A program made the translations under genes and the position numbers. The notes below the pieces were generated by a model. The model saw nothing but the letters and a program-made list of their open reading frames with translations, searched no databases and was not told the DNA's origin. Shown here piece by piece: positions 1-7,232 of a DNA stretch of 9,926 bases; the stretch's first letter is position 1; every line of letters starts with the position of its first letter. Source of the DNA: a virus (lineage: Duplodnaviria > Heunggongvirae > Uroviricota > Caudoviricetes); the IMG/VR virus record IMGVR_UViG_2713896737_000012; one strand, given 5' to 3'.

Positions 1-1849
1 CCTTCGCCAGCGCAGCCGGATTATCACCGTACACGTCCCGAAGACGCTGCGCTTCAGACTCCCGCTGCGCCTGACGGTCAGTGAGACCGCGGGCTTTTGC
101 GCTGATGGCGGCCTGCTTCGCGCTCTGCTGCTGCTCAAACCGCACCGCCTGCTGTGCCAGCTCATTCAGGCGTTTCTGGTGTTCAACTTTGTCTCCCAGC
201 TCAGCCAGCTGGCGTTTGTACTCCAGCGTCTCGTCTTTATGCGCCAGCAGGAATTTTTCCTGCTCAGATAACTGCCGTTTCGTGGCAGCCTCTTTCAGGA
301 CCGCATACTGATTTTCCGCTTTCCATAAATCGCGACGCTGCCGGCTGATTTTCTCATTCGCACCGCTGTGTTTTTCCAGCGTCCTGAGCTCGGTTTCAAG
401 CGCCAGCAGGGCAGCATGCGCCTGGTCTTCCTGACGCTCACCGGCTGACACTTTGACTCCTGACGACTTCGGCTTTTTCAGCGTCGATTCATAATCCTTT
501 TTCGCCGCCGCCATCAGCGTGTTGTAATCCGCCCGCAGGATTTTCCCGTCTTTCAGGGCCTTATTCAGTTCTTCCTGACGGGCGGTATATTTCTCCAGCG
601 GCGTCAGCAGACGCTCATACGCCTTCTGCGCCTCTCCGGTATACTTCAGCTGTGATGCGTCCCGTTCGGCCCGGTCCCTGGCGGCCAGTTCACCGGCTTT
701 TTCCATATCCGACTGCAGCGTGGCCGCTGCCAGCCCCAGACGGGCATTTTCCCGGTCATTCCATGCGCCCTGAAGGTTGGCCCGGAAAGAGGCGGTTTTT
801 CCCCGGCGCTGGCTCCGGCTCTGGTACCACTGCCATTTTTTATCCGCCTCATCAAATGCCTTCTGTGCACTGGCGAGCATATCCGCTGAGGACTCAGGAC
901 GACCGATATCCAGAATGGCATCCCACATCGATTTGAATGCCTTCCCGGTTTTATCCGCCCAGGTCTCCAGTGTCCCCATGTTTTCTTTCAGGCGACGGGT
1001 CTGCTCATCAAAGCCTTTCGTGGCGATATCGTTCGCCGCCTGTAAGGCCCCGGCCTCATCACCGGAACGCTGCAGCTGCGCAACATACGCAATCTGCTCT
1101 GCCGTCACGTTACGGAACTGGCGCACCATCGCAATCAGCCCCGACGTAGGGTCGGTGGTCAGTTTTCCGAAAGCCTCTGCAACCTTGTCCACCTCCACAC
1201 CGGATGCAGAAGCAAAACGCGCGACACTCTGGTTGATGGCATCAAACTGTTCACCACCACGCACACCGGCATTCACCAGGGCTGCCAGTGACTCTCTCGC
1301 CTGGTTAAACGTCAGCCCTGCTGCCTGCCCGGCTCTTGAGAGCGTCAGCATGCGATCGGCAGTCAGTCCGGACTGATTACCGGAAAGAACCAGGGTTTTA
1401 TTAAACGCTGAAAGCGTGGAATCTCCCTGGTACCAGGCGTACACCAGCGCACCTGTCGCCACCGCCAGCGAGGTGACCCCGACCATCGGCAGGGTGATCG
1501 CACCGGCAAGCCCCCTGAACATGGGGATCATCCCGCCGAAGGAGTCCTTCACCTGACCGCCCTGTTGCAGCAGGATCAGCCAGGGATTCTGACCACCGGC
1601 AAGCTGCGTGGCGATATCCGTAAACTGTGCGGGCAGGGTTCGCATGGCCGCTTTATACTGCCCGACGGAAATCCCGGCTTTTTGTGCAGCCAGCGCCTGG
1701 CGGCTCAGGCCCTGTTCAACAGCACTGGCGGTTTTTCTGACGTCGGTATCCAGACCTGAAAAATGACGCCTTACCCGGCTCATCTGCTCATCGAAACGGA
1801 CAGCATCCAGACTCAGGTCAATAACAAGATCACCAACCGGCTGGGACAT
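1..1849 (-). CDS. H: Tail tape measure protein, N-terminal ~616 codons; partial, continues beyond the window start
   Basis: ATG is the reverse complement of 1847-1849, preceded by a GGGAGG RBS. Hand translation (MSQPVGDLVIDLSLDAVRFDEQMSRVRRHFSG...GISVGQYKAAMRTLPAQFTDIATQLAGGQNPWLILLQQGGQVKDSFGGMIPMFRGLAG...) is open to position 1 and closely matches lambda gpH as recalled. Start overlaps the 3' end of the T frame, as in lambda. Confidence 0.88.
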   Translation of the reverse strand, partial: MSQPVGDLVIDLSLDAVRFDEQMSRVRRHFSGLDTDVRKTASAVEQGLSRQALAAQKAGISVGQYKAAMRTLPAQFTDIATQLAGGQNPWLILLQQGGQVKDSFGGMIPMFRGLAGAITLPMVGVTSLAVATGALVYAWYQGDSTLSAFNKTLVLSGNQSGLTADRMLTLSRAGQAAGLTFNQARESLAALVNAGVRGGEQFDAINQSVARFASASGVEVDKVAEAFGKLTTDPTSGLIAMVRQFRNVTAEQIAYVAQLQRSGDEAGALQAANDIATKGFDEQTRRLKENMGTLETWADKTGKAFKSMWDAILDIGRPESSADMLASAQKAFDEADKKWQWYQSRSQRRGKTASFRANLQGAWNDRENARLGLAAATLQSDMEKAGELAARDRAERDASQLKYTGEAQKAYERLLTPLEKYTARQEELNKALKDGKILRADYNTLMAAAKKDYESTLKKPKSSGVKVSAGERQEDQAHAALLALETELRTLEKHSGANEKISRQRRDLWKAENQYAVLKEAATKRQLSEQEKFLLAHKDETLEYKRQLAELGDKVEHQKRLNELAQQAVRFEQQQSAKQAAISAKARGLTDRQAQRESEAQRLRDVYGDNPAALAK

Positions 1850-2294
1850 ATCTCACACCTCCCGGAATCCCCGCTGAAGCCATCATTAATGCGGCATCAT
1901 CCACCATGACATCCGCCACATCCGCAGACGATAAAATATCGCGCCCTCCGTCCCCACCGAACCGGACGCCTCCGGCAAGTCCTGCCGCTTTCTGCATCAG
2001 CATTTTGTCCTCATCCGGCCTCTCCACCTGCTCTTCCTCATGCCGGGGGACAAGCAGACTGAAATCAGAGGGATGCATATCCGGATCGCAAAAAAACAGG
2101 CTGAGTACAGCGTACGTCAGCCCGGAAAAATGCATATCCAGCTGGGTATCCTGAAAATAATGCGTGCGGTAAAAACGGTGCCAGTCGGCATATTCGGTGG
2201 ATGTCATCCCGGCAAGCATGGCGCGCCAGTCGGGTCTCCCCATCTCACGCGCCAGTCTGAGGGCAAAGTTCAGCTCGCCGTCGAAGACTTTCCC
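1830..2294 (-). CDS. T: T-frame segment of the tail assembly chaperone, expressed only as a G-T fusion after a -1 frameshift
   Basis: The -1 frame relative to G is open from the slippery site to a TGA at 1830-1832. Its translation (...VFDGELNFALRLAREMGRPDWRAMLAGMTSTEYADWHRFYRTHYF...) matches lambda gpT as recalled. There is no independent RBS or start requirement, as in lambda. Confidence 0.75.
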   Translation of the reverse strand, partial: GKVFDGELNFALRLAREMGRPDWRAMLAGMTSTEYADWHRFYRTHYFQDTQLDMHFSGLTYAVLSLFFCDPDMHPSDFSLLVPRHEEEQVERPDEDKMLMQKAAGLAGGVRFGGDGGRDILSSADVADVMVDDAALMMASAGIPGGVRYVPAGW

Positions 2295-2701
2295 GCAGAA
2301 AAATCATCATCAGTCAGCGTGTTATTTTTCGCCACTTCAGTAATATCAGTATCCGGACGAACAGCCCCGCTCATCCCGGACAGGCACAACACCACGTCTT
2401 CCGCCCGGGCAATGGCATCGGCAGGCCAGGTGGTGAGCACTTCCTGCTCTATCTTCATCACGGCCTCATTCATTGACGGTGACTGCGTTTTCTGTGGATG
2501 GTTATGCCACAGGGACATCGCCACCAGAAACGCGCCGGTTCTGACGAGATCTTCCACGCTTACCTGCAGGTTGCCGCTGGATTCTGCCTGTTCTGCACGC
2601 CGTTTCAGGAGGGCAAGATGCTCGATACGCTGCAGCGCAGACAATTCGGAAAGCGTGACAGACACACCGTTATATTCAAATTGTTCTGTTTTCAGAAACA
2701 T
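2270..2701 (-). CDS. G: Tail assembly chaperone G
   Basis: ATG is the reverse complement of 2699-2701, preceded by a GGAGG RBS. The product MFLKTEQFEYNGVSVTLSELSALQRIEHLALLKRRAEQAE...AMSLWHNHPQKTQSPSMNEAV matches lambda gpG as recalled. The track ORF starting at 2773 is an upstream extension with no homology. Confidence 0.88.
   Translation of the reverse strand: MFLKTEQFEYNGVSVTLSELSALQRIEHLALLKRRAEQAESSGNLQVSVEDLVRTGAFLVAMSLWHNHPQKTQSPSMNEAVMKIEQEVLTTWPADAIARAEDVVLCLSGMSGAVRPDTDITEVAKNNTLTDDDFSAGKSSTAS
2288..2294 (-). promoter_or_regulatory. Programmed -1 ribosomal frameshift slippery heptamer G_GGA_AAG at the end of G
   Basis: Plus strand 2288-2294 is ctttccc, so the minus strand reads GGGAAAG in the G frame as G GGA AAG (Gly-Lys). 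This is the same heptamer and position as the lambda G/GT site, and the -1 frame continues into the T homolog. Confidence 0.8.
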
Positions 2702-2714
2702 GTATGACCTCCGT

Positions 2715-3377
2715 TTACCCTGCAGCGCCCGCTTCAGTAACGGTGACTTCAGCCACTGCGGCGAACTGACCATTTCCGCTCACCACAGGGATCTGCACCT
2801 TACCTGTCGCCACGCCGTTTACCGTAATTGTCATATCTTTCACACTAATGGTGGCTTTCGACGGATCGGCGGAAACCGCTCTGAACGTCTTGTCTGTTGC
2901 ACTTTCCGGCTCAAAAGAAACCGTCAGGGTGGTTGTTTTCCCTTTTGCCACCGTACCGGATGTCGGCGTCACCTTAATCGCACTGACCGGCGTAATTTTG
3001 CTGCGTTCTTCCGCTACAGAAGGTTTACCCACGTTAGTGACTTTCACCGTGCGGGTGATCACTTCTTTCGCCGTCACGGCCTTACCGATACTGCTGACCC
3101 AGCCACGAAACACATCCACCGTGCCATTCGGAAAACGGATTTTATAGGCCCGGACATCGCCGCTTTCAAACCAGCCTATAAGCCCTTTCTGGCCTTCCTC
3201 TCCCGGTTTCCAGGCCAGCGTAAAACTGGTATCACCTGCAGATTTCTGCCCCTGCCCGGTCGCGGTCCAGTCCGCGTCTTCATCATCCAGGTAGTTATCA
3301 TCGTAGGATTCTGCCGTCATCTCGCCCGGCGTCAGATCCTTCACCTTAGCCAGTCGCTGCCAGTCATCGTCTGACAA
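2715..3377 (-). CDS. V: Major tail (tube) protein V with C-terminal Ig-like domain; native N-terminus and start codon missing
   Basis: Translation (...[58 protein letters not shown]...[41 protein letters not shown]...) matches lambda gpV. The same frame is open upstream to a stop at 3498-3500 and already encodes [12 protein letters not shown] (lambda V residues ~9-20), but contains no ATG or GTG. The track start at 3377 is a TTG. Stop TAA at 2715-2717. Confidence 0.75.
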
Positions 3378-3436
3378 CGGGTTTGCATAGGCGTCACCCT
3401 GACCGTTATAAACCCACAGGGTGGTACCGGCTCCTT

Positions 3437-3703
3437 TTACCGGCTCCAGGGGAATTCGTGTTTCGGCTTGACGTAGCCCGGACGTAACACGCGGGTTTCA
3501 CCACCGCGATGACGCAGCACTTTTCCTTCAACAACCGGGGAGACATAGGCCGCCACCGGCGTTTTTCCGGTAATTTTGTCCAGCATCACCTCTTCGGTAT
3601 GGAAATTCACCGTACGGCGGAAAAACAGCTCCAGAAACAGCGCACGAAATTTCACTTTTTGTTCGGTATAACCGAGTAACTGGCGGGTCGTAAACAATCC
3701 CAT
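3437..3703 (-). pseudogene. E: Major capsid protein E remnant: about 82 N-terminal codons, then 5 out-of-frame codons and a stop
   Basis: ATG is the reverse complement of 3701-3703 with an AAAGGAAC RBS. MGLFTTRQLLGYTEQKVKFRALFLELFFRR...[31 protein letters not shown] aligns with the lambda gpE N-terminus (MSMYTTAQLLAANEQKFKFDPLFLRLFFRE...PGYVKPKHE). Homology stops at ...KPKHE and the frame then reads FPWSR-stop. Lambda gpE is about 341 aa. Confidence 0.8.
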
Positions 3704-3731
3704 AAATCAGTTCCTTTCATTCAGAAATCAG

Positions 3732-3753
3732 TCAGGCCACCGCGGTGGCCTGA
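3732..3753. promoter_or_regulatory. Perfect 22-bp palindrome TCAGGCCACCGCGGTGGCCTGA in the D-E intergenic space; predicted GC-rich RNA hairpin
   Basis: Read directly from the sequence: it is self-complementary over 22 bp, lies 8 nt past the D stop codon (3761-3763) and about 28 nt before the E start (3703). A function as attenuator, terminator or processing site is inferred only. Confidence 0.45.
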
Positions 3754-3760
3754 TAACGTG

Positions 3761-4108
3761 TTACGGCAGCGCCGCGTGACTCAGGGCACTGCCGGCAAAG
3801 GCATTTGCCTTTTTGTGTTCATCCACACTTTCAGGCCAGCGGATTGCCTCCGTCGCAAAGGTCCCCGACTTGTAATAGGTCAGTACCGTCTCTGTGCCTT
3901 CAAGCGGCAGTACCAGTATGCCAACTGCACTACCGGCTTTCTGTCCGTCCCAGACCACCAGTTTCCCGCTGGCTTCATCCAGCATCAGGGGCGTCAGTGC
4001 CGGTGTTGCCGAGGAAATCCCGCTGCTGCCTGTGGCGGTATGAGCCGGATCATTACCGGCAAAAATACGTACTTCCGCACGCTGTTCAGTGATGTTTTTC
4101 GTTACCAT
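3761..4108 (-). CDS. D: Head decoration protein D
   Basis: ATG is the reverse complement of 4106-4108 with a GGAGG RBS. The 115-aa product (...NDPAHTATGSSGISSATPALTPLMLDEASGKLVVWDG...YYKSGTFATEAIRWPE...) matches lambda gpD (110 aa; [37 protein letters not shown]...FYKSGTFRYEDVLWPE). Confidence 0.9.
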   Translation of the reverse strand: MVTKNITEQRAEVRIFAGNDPAHTATGSSGISSATPALTPLMLDEASGKLVVWDGQKAGSAVGILVLPLEGTETVLTYYKSGTFATEAIRWPESVDEHKKANAFAGSALSHAALP

Positions 4109-4144
4109 ATTGTAAAAACCTCCTGTTGATGGTCAGCACTGACT

Positions 4145-4960
4145 TCATGGCATGGCCATGAGCATTTTCACGTCCGCATCACCGTCTGCTGACGTCTGTG
4201 GCACGCCACCCTGTACCGCAGCCGGTGAATGGTTCGCCATGATGCGTTCAAACAGGGCGGTTGTGGATGCAGAGACCGGTTCTGCCTTACCTGATCCCGC
4301 AGCCAGCACAGCCCGGGCGCTCTCCACAGTCATTCCCGGGCAGGCAGCCAGCTGTTCAGCCTGCGCCTCAGCCCCTTTTGCCTCATCCAGTGCCATGATC
4401 TGATCACGGAGTGAGGGTCCGGCATCCGCCTGCGGTGAAGCAGCCAGGATCGGGCGGGCTTTTTCCACCGTCATCTCCGGCATCGCCGCCAGCGTTGCCG
4501 CCAGTTGTTCACGACCGTTCGCTTCTTCACACGCCATAATGCGATCGGCTTCACTCTGCGTGGATGCCACCGGCTGCTGCGGTGCCGCCGCGGCCAGAAT
4601 CGCCCGGGCCTGTTCAACGCTCATGCCCTGTTGTCCTGCCAGCATCGTGGCAAGCTGTTCACGTCCTTTCGCTTCCTGGCATGTCAGGATCCCCATCACT
4701 CGCTGGTTCTCCTGCGCGGCGGCTTCCGTTGCAGTTAATTGCGGCATAGTGCCTCCTCTGACATTACTGTTCAGCGCCGTGGCCATCACACTGATGGCAT
4801 CCGACGCATTGACTAATTCATCCGCCAGCCCGGCATCAATGCCGGACTGACCTTCAAAAACGGCGGCCTCTGTTCCCGTGACGGCATCAACAGACAGACC
4901 GGTAAACATGGCCACTTTTTCGGCAAACATCCGGCGCGCCGCATCAATGCGCTGCTGCAT
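4145..4960 (-). CDS. nu3: Possible nested in-frame scaffold protein (Nu3-like) from an internal start within C
   Basis: In lambda, Nu3 is translated from an internal in-frame start in C. Here an internal ATG (reverse complement of 4958-4960; Met231 in MQQRIDAARRMFAEK) sits 4 codons upstream of the position aligned to the lambda Nu3 start, with a weak GAGG about 11 nt upstream. This is by analogy only. Confidence 0.3.
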   Translation of the reverse strand: MQQRIDAARRMFAEKVAMFTGLSVDAVTGTEAAVFEGQSGIDAGLADELVNASDAISVMATALNSNVRGGTMPQLTATEAAAQENQRVMGILTCQEAKGREQLATMLAGQQGMSVEQARAILAAAAPQQPVASTQSEADRIMACEEANGREQLAATLAAMPEMTVEKARPILAASPQADAGPSLRDQIMALDEAKGAEAQAEQLAACPGMTVESARAVLAAGSGKAEPVSASTTALFERIMANHSPAAVQGGVPQTSADGDADVKMLMAMP

Positions 4961-5650
4961 GTTCTGGCGAACCTCTGCCGGTAAGGCTTCAAACTGATTG
5001 CCATCCACCTTGTGCGCCCCTGAGTAAATCAGCGTGATATCCACACCGGCCTGCGCCAGATGACCGGCATAGCTGACATGGCTCATCATCACGCCAATGG
5101 AGCCGATACGGGATGTCTGGGTAACCAGCCGTCGGGAGCAGGCCGACGCCAGCAGCATGGCTGCAGAACAGGCCGTGTCATTGCACAGTGCCCAGACCGG
5201 CTTCTGCTGACGGAGGCGGTAAATCATGTCAGCGCAGTCAAACGCGCCGGCGGCCTGCCCGCCCGGACTGTCAATGTCCAGCAGTACGCCCCGCACCTGG
5301 CTATCCGCCATTGCCTGCTGAAGACAGGCGACAATGCCGTCATAGCCTGTCATTCCGGAAAATGGCCGCATACCCCCCAGCCGGTGCACCAGCGTGCCGG
5401 TCACCGGCAGTACAGCAATACCGTTCACCACCCGGTAAACACGGGCCGGTCGTTTACCTCCGGCCATGTACTCGTCCGTTTCAGCCAGCATTCCGGGAGC
5501 ATCAAGCTGTACCTGCTGCTGTGGTACCGAAAGACTTGCTGCCCCCATCTCGCGCCCGAGCGCGCAAAAGAAAACCCGCGCATAGGCGGGCTCCAGAAGC
5601 AGCGGTTCATTGAATGCTGCGGCAATAATGTGTGAAAGATTACGTCTCAC
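4145..5650 (-). CDS. C: Head maturation protease / minor capsid protein C (S49 SppA-like) with a repeat-containing scaffold-like C-terminal region
   Basis: The 501-aa ORF has an N-terminus RRNLSHIIAAAFNEPLLLEPAYARVFFCAL matching lambda gpC (LRNLPHIASMAFNEPLMLEPAYARVFFCAL) and a conserved core (...PVWALCNDTACSAAMLLASACSRRLVTQTSRIGSIGVMM...LIYSGAHKVDGN...). The most upstream start in frame is a GTG (reverse complement of 5648-5650), overlapping the 3' end of B as in lambda. Exact start is uncertain. Confidence 0.88.
   Translation of the reverse strand: MRRNLSHIIAAAFNEPLLLEPAYARVFFCALGREMGAASLSVPQQQVQLDAPGMLAETDEYMAGGKRPARVYRVVNGIAVLPVTGTLVHRLGGMRPFSGMTGYDGIVACLQQAMADSQVRGVLLDIDSPGGQAAGAFDCADMIYRLRQQKPVWALCNDTACSAAMLLASACSRRLVTQTSRIGSIGVMMSHVSYAGHLAQAGVDITLIYSGAHKVDGNQFEALPAEVRQNMQQRIDAARRMFAEKVAMFTGLSVDAVTGTEAAVFEGQSGIDAGLADELVNASDAISVMATALNSNVRGGTMPQLTATEAAAQENQRVMGILTCQEAKGREQLATMLAGQQGMSVEQARAILAAAAPQQPVASTQSEADRIMACEEANGREQLAATLAAMPEMTVEKARPILAASPQADAGPSLRDQIMALDEAKGAEAQAEQLAACPGMTVESARAVLAAGSGKAEPVSASTTALFERIMANHSPAAVQGGVPQTSADGDADVKMLMAMP
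4256..4702 (-). repeat. Three diverged in-frame tandem repeats (~144-159 bp; ~48-53 aa) in the C/scaffold C-terminal region
   Basis: Protein units: RVMGILTCQEAKGREQLATMLAGQQGMSVEQARAILAAAAPQQP..., RIMACEEANGREQLAATLAAMPEMTVEKARPILAASPQ..., IMALDEAKGAEAQAEQLAACPGMTVESARAVLAAGSG.... DNA units are similar but not identical, so the duplication is old. Confidence 0.7.
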
Positions 5651-7232
5651 GGGGTGTTGTCTCCTCTTCCGGCCTGCGACTCTCCGCTATCTGCTGCTGA
5701 TACGCCTGCGCTATCCACACCGGACGTGAGAGTCCGGCTTTTTGCCGCTCTGCAGATTCCCTGACCTGCTGGCGGAAAATGTCCTGATAATCCTCGCCCA
5801 TCAGCGCCGGCTCTTTCTCATACGTGCTCAGTCCGGCCTCAATGCGCATCACCGATTCCTGAACCTCCTTGAGCCCGTCAATGGCCATTCTTCCGGCACC
5901 AATCCACTCTGCCCGTGACCAGGCTGATCGCGCCTGATAAAAATCAAAACGCGCCCGTGGCGGACGGATAATCCCCCGAAGAAGTGCCTCTTCCAGCCAG
6001 TAGGAAAACATCTGCGTGGCCAGCCGGGCCGCAATAAATTTTCGCCGCCCCATAAAATAGCGCCACGACTCATTGGCAGAGGCCCTGGCACTTGAATAAC
6101 TGACCTTCGAGTAATCACGGGACAACTGTTCGTAGGAAACGCCAAGACCGGCGGCGATATACCGCAGCAGCGCCTGTTCAAGCGCCGAAAATCCATTGTC
6201 TGAATCCTGCGCAGTCTGTAGTTTCAGATCATCCCCGGGGAAAAGGTGCGGAATTTTGACACCACCCAGCGTCACGTTATTCGTGTCATACCAGCTGGAG
6301 AACTTCTCCAGAATATTAATAAGCGGATTATCCTTCTGCCCCTGCGGCGCACCGGCGATATATTCAAAGGCCTTTTCGGTATCAAGGTCACTTTCAATCG
6401 TCGCTGCATACATGGCTTTCACAATGGCCGACTGAAGCTGTGTTGCCTGCAGGGAATCGAGCATCTTCAGCCGTTCCATGACGCTGTAAAACTGGTTGGC
6501 CCCACGGGTCTGCCCGTCCTCCACCGGCTCGAAAATATGCAGCATGGCCGGACGCCCGGTGGGAAGTTCACGCGGGATCCGTTCCCATCGTCCACTCCCG
6601 GAGCGAGGAAAATCATCCTCACAGATATGGTACGCAACGGCACGGCCATATCGATCGACCTCCACCCCGGCCCGCAGAAAACGGTTCCCCATACCGTGTC
6701 CTGGCGTGTCCACCCGTTTCGGACTCACGGCTTTAAAACGCGTACGGAATAACTGCGTGGTTTCCGTATCCCAGACCGGCTGCACAAAGATTTCGCCGTT
6801 AAACGCATGAACGCCCACACCTTCACGGATAAATTCCGTGAACGTGCGTTTTCCTTCCACGTCGATCTCGCCAGACATCCCTTCGGCGTATTCCGACCAG
6901 GCCGCCTCCACCTCATCGACAAAGCTTTTTGCTGCGGTCTCCCGCATCCCCAGCCAGCGCCAGTTCGGACGGTAGCTGATAAGAAACATATGCCCGACAA
7001 TGTGATCCTTATGCAGTGCCACCGCATTGGCCGCTATTCCGTTATTGCGCACCAGATCATCTGCCCGGGCATTCCCCAGACGCAACGCGGGCAGCAGGGC
7101 CGCATCGGCACTCTGCGCCGGTGGCAACCACTCCGCCATTTGCCCGCCAAATCCTGCACCGCCCCCGTTGTAGCTGAGACTCTCACGAAGCGGAACGCCG
7201 TTCACATCAATCAGGACAGGCGTTCGTTTCAT
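5640..7232 (-). CDS. B: Portal protein
   Basis: 530-aa ORF with ATG as the reverse complement of 7230-7232, overlapping the W stop as ATGA. It matches lambda gpB (533 aa) throughout, e.g. ALLPALRLGNARADDLVRNNG, FEPVEDGQTRGANQFYSVMERLKMLDSLQATQLQSAIVKAMYAATIES, LLRYIAAGLGVSYEQLSR, GRMAIDGLKEVQESVMRIEAGLSTYEKE. Confidence 0.93.
   Translation of the reverse strand: MKRTPVLIDVNGVPLRESLSYNGGGAGFGGQMAEWLPPAQSADAALLPALRLGNARADDLVRNNGIAANAVALHKDHIVGHMFLISYRPNWRWLGMRETAAKSFVDEVEAAWSEYAEGMSGEIDVEGKRTFTEFIREGVGVHAFNGEIFVQPVWDTETTQLFRTRFKAVSPKRVDTPGHGMGNRFLRAGVEVDRYGRAVAYHICEDDFPRSGSGRWERIPRELPTGRPAMLHIFEPVEDGQTRGANQFYSVMERLKMLDSLQATQLQSAIVKAMYAATIESDLDTEKAFEYIAGAPQGQKDNPLINILEKFSSWYDTNNVTLGGVKIPHLFPGDDLKLQTAQDSDNGFSALEQALLRYIAAGLGVSYEQLSRDYSKVSYSSARASANESWRYFMGRRKFIAARLATQMFSYWLEEALLRGIIRPPRARFDFYQARSAWSRAEWIGAGRMAIDGLKEVQESVMRIEAGLSTYEKEPALMGEDYQDIFRQQVRESAERQKAGLSRPVWIAQAYQQQIAESRRPEEETTPRET

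Follow-up and report, generated by a model that had tools for sequence, protein, structure and literature searches.

A natural deletion joint between capsid gene E and tail tube gene V in an Sp4-type prophage of Escherichia coli O157:H7

The joint between the major capsid gene E and the tail tube gene V in the late operon studied here is an ordinary natural deletion scar, already catalogued at the level of genes. It lies in a stretch of 9,926 nucleotides, hereafter the window, which is the late region of a defective lambdoid prophage of the Sp4/CP-933M type from E. coli O157:H7, with head genes of the phage-21 type. Our account of the scar as a whole, which we regard as likely, is that a natural deletion of ~2.5 kb, assisted by short homology, fused E to V in an Sp4-type prophage, and that the resulting haplotype was later copied or inherited by the two prophages, Sp4 and Sp14, that now carry it. 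The two features that make the joint conspicuous, a direct repeat of 10 bp and a recognition hexamer for EcoRI, play different parts in what follows. The repeat is, on the alignments presented below, V coding sequence that was there before the deletion and has no demonstrable role in it, and the EcoRI site arose by chance when the two parental sequences were joined.

The host prophage and the structure of the joint

The window carries, on its minus strand, a late operon of the lambda/phage-21 type, with the genes Nu1, A, W, B, C/Nu3, D, a truncated E, V, G, T and H. Over 9,573 bp (window 1-9573) it is 99.96% identical to Sp4 of strain Sakai, the identity with Sp14 being 99.8%, and its positions 1-133 are of the Sp4 type and not of the Sp14 type, so that near-identity and locus both assign it to Sp4 (CP-933M). 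In complete genomes, the first copy of the joint lies beside tRNA-Ser (serT)/hyaA, in a prophage with tccP2 and an espV remnant (PV15-279, Sakai) that the Sakai annotation names Sp4, and the second lies beside yodB, in a prophage with espJ and tccP that it names Sp14 (CP-933U). Both were scored as defective for Head and Major Tail in Table 1 of Asadulghani et al. 2009 (PMC2669165), so that, at the level of genes, the defect is on record. According to the same study, the cos and Nu1 of Sp4 and Sp14 are identical, Sp4 DNA is packaged with helper functions, and the nu1 of Sp4 is disrupted by ISEc8 (PMC2669165). The literature that we searched held no description at base level of the joint, or of the 10.1-kb identical block in which it lies.

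The window differs from Sakai Sp4 in being continuous across the ISEc8 target site in nu1 (9566-9573), which is empty here and makes the window a strain variant. In Sakai Sp4, strain 319 and many other O157:H7 strains the element occupies this site, with the 8-bp target duplicated; two IMG/VR contigs (L011 and L013) are uninterrupted like the window, and PV15-279 has an IS3-family element instead, from about window position 9295. The last 125 nt of the window (9802-9926) find ~96% matches that are displaced, and inverted in several loci, near the pch / IS629 region, which suggests a strain-specific rearrangement upstream of nu1/cos.

When the window was compared with phage records by megablast, positions 2700-3462 matched the V and G genes of VT1-Sakai-type phages and positions 3453-4150 the D and E genes of phage 21, and no phage record gave a contiguous match across both parts. 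The neighbours of the two fused genes are intact: a head decoration gene (D/shp homologue; 3761-4108, minus strand) precedes the truncated E, hereafter E', and the tail assembly chaperone G (2270-2701, minus strand; gpG at 18971-19402 of locus L003, the Sp4 of PV15-279) follows the truncated V, hereafter V'. On the plus strand, an ORF of 444 codons (2040-3374) lies antisense to T, G and V, with a translation of low complexity that is rich in Cys and Arg; most likely it is non-coding, a shadow ORF opposite the GC-rich coding strand.

The plus strand at the joint reads ...GGTACCGGCTCCTTTTACCGGCTCCAGGGGAATTCGTGTTTCGG..., and its parentage was established by in-register alignment with six intact V genes (VT1-Sakai, the second PV15-279 prophage, phage 204576, phage 21, DEC9B and O55:H7 CB9615) and four intact E genes (phage 21, phage 204576, DEC9B and CB9615). 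With a slash marking the breakpoint, the five V parents of the Sakai/DEC9B type read ...GGGGA/TTTGGTGTTGCCAT, with CAT as the complement of the start codon of V, the V of phage 21 reads ...GAGGA/TTTGGTGTTGGCAT, and the E parents, in all four cases, read ...TTAA/ATTCGTGTTTCGG. The window has V sequence up to A3453 and E sequence from A3453 on. The hexamer GAATTC at 3452-3457, which a sequence-only reading had placed where homology to E ends, does lie there: homology to the intact E genes stops at 3453, and the hexamer hence spans the crossover. Since the switch from V to E falls at A3453, the hexamer is chimeric, with G3452 from V, A3453 shared by both parents and ATTC from E. Neither parent has GAATTC at the breakpoint, the corresponding letters being GATTTG in 6/6 intact V genes and AAATTC in 4/4 intact E genes.

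The deletion measures 2,513 bp against the module of DEC9B and 2,521 bp against that of CB9615, these intact modules being relatives of 93.7-98.4% identity and not the true parent. It removed E codons 85-342, the genes FI, FII, Z and U, and the first 14 nt of V. The alignment to DEC9B and CB9615 leaves no filler bases at the joint, and the joint has neither an IS nor a target duplication. No orthologous intact ancestor, at the same attachment site, was found. We considered O55:H7 CB9615 as the ancestral state and rejected it, because its intact module stands at ydfJ instead of the Sp4 or Sp14 site, with an identity of only 96-98%, which makes it a relative and not an orthologue. An involvement of Chi was also set aside, the nearest Chi-like string in the E parent, by inspection, matching at only 6/8 positions.

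The direct repeat, the EcoRI hexamer and the mechanism of the deletion

The direct repeat is where it had been reported, with taccggctcc on the plus strand at 3425-3434 and 3438-3447 and ttt between the copies, which sit 6-28 nt from the crossover, on the V side. Exact direct repeats of 10 nt spaced by at most 30 nt occur twice in the whole window, and Markov-1 simulations gave a mean of 0.31 such repeats, with a probability of 0.21 for at least one and of 0.07 for at least two; GAATTC occurs once in the window, against 2.9 expected from shuffles. Neither the repeat nor the hexamer exceeds chance. The sole other such repeat in the window is a pair of exact copies of CGCGCCAGTC (2222-2231 and 2248-2257, 26 nt apart), in the region of the G/T gene boundary.

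A perfect repeat so close to a deletion endpoint had been taken to suggest slippage or rearrangement at microhomology, and the parental alignments speak against such a role. Both copies lie in V (codons L-E-P-V-K-G-A-G-T) in different registers, the one at 3425-3434 falling on the minus-strand codons G-A-G-T and the one at 3438-3447 on L-E-P-V, and alignment with the four intact E genes revealed no similarity to the E parent at 3425-3447. When each copy is assigned to its parent, as had been proposed, both fall to V and none to E. Three intact V alleles of the Sakai type contain an 8/10 version of the repeat, and the copy in phage 21 V is more diverged; the two bases that perfect the repeat here, T3432 and C3447, are synonymous third positions (GGA vs GGT in other V alleles at T3432, and CTG vs CTT at C3447). 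Further evidence comes from intact operons. We reconstructed a pre-deletion query from the V 5' end of the window, the V start and the U 3' end, and searched complete E. coli genomes with it; three of them matched at 100% over 107/109 nt, with V beside U. DEC9B, F2_407_2_2 and 7_33_46A thus have the perfect repeat in an intact V that adjoins U, and in DEC9B the whole module from Nu1 to J is intact, with the identical repeat in the V 5' end. In IMG/VR, an exact 23-mer scan for the perfect repeat returned ten matches, 10/10 of them with the same joint and none from an intact example. The sequence-only reading had itself proposed that the repeat should count as ordinary coding sequence if it were seen in the native V of intact relatives, and the undisturbed U-V region of the DEC9B-type prophages is such a case.

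These observations make it extremely improbable that the deletion was caused by slippage between the two taccggctcc copies, one derived from E and the other from V. The repeat is perfect and lies 6-28 nt from the crossover, which could be cited for such an event, but the arrangement expected of slipped strands, one copy from each parental segment, is not found: none of the four intact E genes inspected has taccggctcc at codon ~85, and the same perfect repeat persists in intact V genes adjoining U. Moreover, slippage between these copies would remove 13 bp, not 2.5 kb, and chance alone would place such a repeat in 21% of windows as large as this one.

The restriction hexamer had raised a different concern, namely that two EcoRI fragments were ligated in vitro at GAATTC and that the window is a recombinant clone. 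Two observations could be cited for this: the hexamer lies exactly across the crossover, and the sequence of the E parent, AAATTC, is a single mismatch away from the site. Ligation nevertheless requires GAATTC in both parents, and intact V genes have GATTTG, with two mismatches, which, together with the AAATTC of the E genes, excludes EcoRI cloning. The distribution of the joint leads to the same result. A 60-nt probe centred on the joint, searched against 5,426 complete E. coli genomes, found it in 591 places in 299 of them, always at an identity of at least 99% and with a median of two places per genome, the joint being 100% identical across the 299; 589 of these places are chromosomal, in 299 genomes that include natural isolates. 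Among the carriers are EDL933, Sakai, Xuzhou21 and wild isolates from cattle, food and humans, the natural isolates dating from 1982 onward, and in these genomes the joint occurs twice. It is restricted neither to vectors nor to engineered strains: it is absent from all 50,697 phage records and from plasmids of cloning-vector size, and the only plasmid records that contain it are two large replicons, NZ_CP124741.1 (287 kb) and NZ_CP114132.1 (439 kb). One of them comes from an assembly of EDL933 in which the chromosome, at only 5.14 Mb, is ~400 kb short, and is for that reason probably a mis-binned chromosome segment; the second was recorded from E. coli of the pig gut. Finally, the flanks of the joint are contiguous prophage and chromosome. 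We therefore assign in-vitro construction a negligible probability.

Of the short-homology deletion that had been suggested, two elements survive: the E-V joint is real, and short homology was probably involved in forming it. The homology is not taccggctcc; it is A.TT.GTGTT, which the E and V parents share at 3453-3462 with 8/10 positions matching in register and an exact run of 5 nt. Together with the crossover at A3453, this imperfect microhomology extends over 3453-3464 (A.TT.GTGTT.C) and pairs the 5' end of V with codons 80-84 of E; the minus-strand sequences are GAAACACGAATT in E and GCAACACCAAAT in V, with 9/12 matches including the terminal base. Among random endpoint pairs in the V..E interval of DEC9B, 0.33% reach 8/10 (P=0.0033), and 1.3% have a run of 5 nt. 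The retained patch is wholly of the E type, and the switch to V is at its V-proximal edge, the A/T at 3453. The endpoints are colinear in the intact parent, one copy of the homology was retained and there is no insert, as in a deletion between short homologies. Exact homology at the crossover itself amounts to 1 nt, the extended patch having mismatches at 3454, 3457 and 3463, and the V..E interval contains better exact direct repeats (20 pairs of 10-mers and eight pairs of 11-mers) that went unused, so that homology alone fails to explain the choice of site.

These last observations are also the arguments for a break-and-join event independent of homology, by topoisomerase/gyrase or by end joining after double-strand breaks, for which A.TT.GTGTT would be a coincidence; the search for a patch was moreover made post hoc, which inflates its apparent significance. 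We consider this unlikely, given that an in-register match of 8/10 abutting the crossover is found for only 0.33% of random endpoint pairs, and that the patch survives as a single, unmixed parental copy at whose edge the switch falls, which is what template switching predicts. We thus favour an illegitimate recombination, aided by short, imperfect homology in register, which would have joined E to V. The pattern is consistent with template switching by copy choice: a nascent strand, made from E toward V and with the 3' end ...GAAACACGAATT, would have dissociated, re-annealed at the V start (GCAACACCAAAT) and then been extended. From the letters of the joint we infer both the direction of this switch and the causal part that microhomology may have had in it.

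The two copies of the joint and the fate of the truncated genes

Sp4 and Sp14 of Sakai (loci L022 and L023) have zero differences, ISEc8 ignored, from window coordinate 134 to ~10,257 (~10.1 kb). The part of this block within the window (134-9926) reaches from the tape-measure gene H through Nu1 and beyond and carries the joint in both prophages. Directly to the left of the block, in the tape-measure gene, the two differ abruptly at 14-47 positions per 500 nt (3-9%), and their other modules are 90-96% identical; comparison of Sp4 and Sp14 across strains gives the same picture as within Sakai. Since the same joint stands in Sp14 within a block of 100% identity, the scar has a single origin, and it now stands in two copies in most genomes that have the joint. 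Most simply, the deletion happened once, and a block of ~10 kb was afterwards exchanged or gene-converted between resident prophages. Homologous recombination or gene conversion would then have copied the deleted haplotype from one resident prophage to the other, or else both Sp4 and Sp14 would have inherited it, and it is from the identity profile that gene conversion is suggested as the route to two copies.

Common inheritance without gene conversion would mean that Sp4 and Sp14 descend from one phage, already deleted, which lysogenised two sites with the aid of a helper. The similar architecture of the two prophages and their paralogous cargo (tccP2 / tccP and pchA / pchC, in Sp4 / Sp14) agree with such a descent, and defective Sp4 DNA can be packaged when helper functions are supplied (PMC2669165). 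The profile of identity is nevertheless a mosaic, with zero differences over 10.1 kb, an abrupt change to 3-9% and 90-96% identity in the other modules, and the immunity and replication modules of Sp4 and Sp14 are annotated and laid out differently. This mosaic agrees better with a recent exchange of a single block than with uniform common descent, which we therefore hold to be rather unlikely. After the shared deletion the module decays independently, as follows from private frameshifts in different strains: within the same block, the Sp4 of PV15-279 (L003) and the Sp14 of 644-PT8 (L019) have lesions of their own in the genes for portal, terminase large subunit, tape measure and J.

The deletion left E' (3437-3703, minus strand, 88 codons) with its own start and its AAGGAA ribosome-binding site. 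Residues 1-84 are native E (...KPKHEF) and are followed by PWSR and a TAA stop at 3437-3439, which is read out of frame in V sequence, inside the spacer between the repeat copies. The 88-aa product (3440-3703, minus strand) matches positions 1-80 of the 329 of the Pfam profile Phage_cap_E (E=1.5e-14), that is, not the full length of gpE, and because the rest of the profile was deleted E' is a gene fragment. It is annotated as a 'phage head protein' in Sakai (ECs_1110 / ECs_2730) and as a pseudogene by PGAP.

V' (2715-3453, minus strand) is the tail tube gene without its first 14 nt. Its ATG, codons 2-5 and the GAGGA ribosome-binding site were lost with the deleted DNA, and its frame is -1 relative to E'. 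In the 246-aa reading (2718-3455, minus strand), both the tube domain and the C-terminal Ig-like domain are complete (Phage_TTP_12, 1-135/135, E=2e-69; Big_2, 2-79/79), and the gene lacks an initiation codon and a ribosome-binding site of its own. PGAP annotates it as an intact 'phage tail protein' of 246 aa (WP_029208397.1) starting at ATT 3453-3455, in the joint itself and overlapping the E' pseudogene, and the Sakai annotation has 209 aa from GTG 3344; the first canonical start in frame is TTG 3377. No Shine-Dalgarno sequence was found before ATT 3455, TTG 3377 or GTG 3344. The PGAP call is probably an artefact of homology-driven annotation, and expression of V', judged from these start regions, is unlikely. 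The allele-specific T3432 also creates a Shine-Dalgarno-like AAGGAG inside the V coding sequence (minus strand, 3436-3431), downstream of which the only candidate start in frame is a CTG at 3417-3419; as a ribosome-binding site for V' this repeat-internal motif was rejected, the CTG being all that follows it in frame. We also rejected a programmed -1 frameshift fusing E' to V', because inspection from the joint to the E' stop found no X_XXY_YYZ heptamer.

The TAA of E' (3437-3439) lies 16 nt past the in-frame ATT (3455) that PGAP takes as the start of V', which brings up the possibility that the scar was not neutral, and that re-initiation on V' or a capsid-interfering E' favoured its fixation in two O157:H7 prophages. 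We think this very unlikely. If re-initiation did occur, ribosomes ending the strongly initiated E' would yield a near-full-length tail tube protein with its Pfam domains intact; if E' did interfere, an N-terminal capsid fragment of 88 residues would hinder capsid assembly in related phages of the phage-21 type.

Significance and comparison with known systems

Beyond bookkeeping, the significance of the scar is small. Its description provides an account at base resolution of the head and tail defects of Sp4 and Sp14, and positions 3423-3482 are a unique 60-nt marker for the deleted haplotype. The joint also illustrates that an apparent cloning-site signature can emerge by chance at a natural deletion, and its analysis exposes the inconsistent annotation of V', with 246 aa from ATT in one case and 209 aa from GTG in the other. 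The identical block of 10.1 kb would be a clean example of a defect copied between the resident prophages of one chromosome, and copying of this kind bears on the homogenisation of the O157 prophage pool and on large inversions between such repeats.

Spontaneous deletions that depend on short homology are well known in E. coli from the classic lacI deletion class, which is explained by models of copy choice or slipped mispairing. The lacI deletions, like the joint described here, have colinear endpoints, a short homology in register of which one copy is kept, and no filler DNA. The E-V joint differs from them in the imperfection of its homology, which matches at 8/10 positions and is exact over only 1 nt where the switch falls.

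In gene order and orientation, the window is the same as the late operon of phage 21 and lambda (Nu1-A-W-B-C-D-E-FI-FII-Z-U-V-G-T-H); its head genes are 96% identical to those of phage 21, and its V is a tail tube protein of the same type as lambda gpV, with a C-terminal Big_2 domain. In contrast to these phages, the window has E cut after codon 84, lacks FI, FII, Z and U, and has lost the start of V, the intact equivalents of the cut region being those of DEC9B and O55:H7 CB9615. The closest counterparts are the Sp4 and Sp14 of Sakai and EDL933, which have the same pair of E' and V' (ECs_1110/1111 and ECs_2730/2729). Compared with Sakai Sp4, the window is free of the ISEc8 that disrupts nu1, and it departs from Sp4 and Sp14 alike over its last 125 nt.
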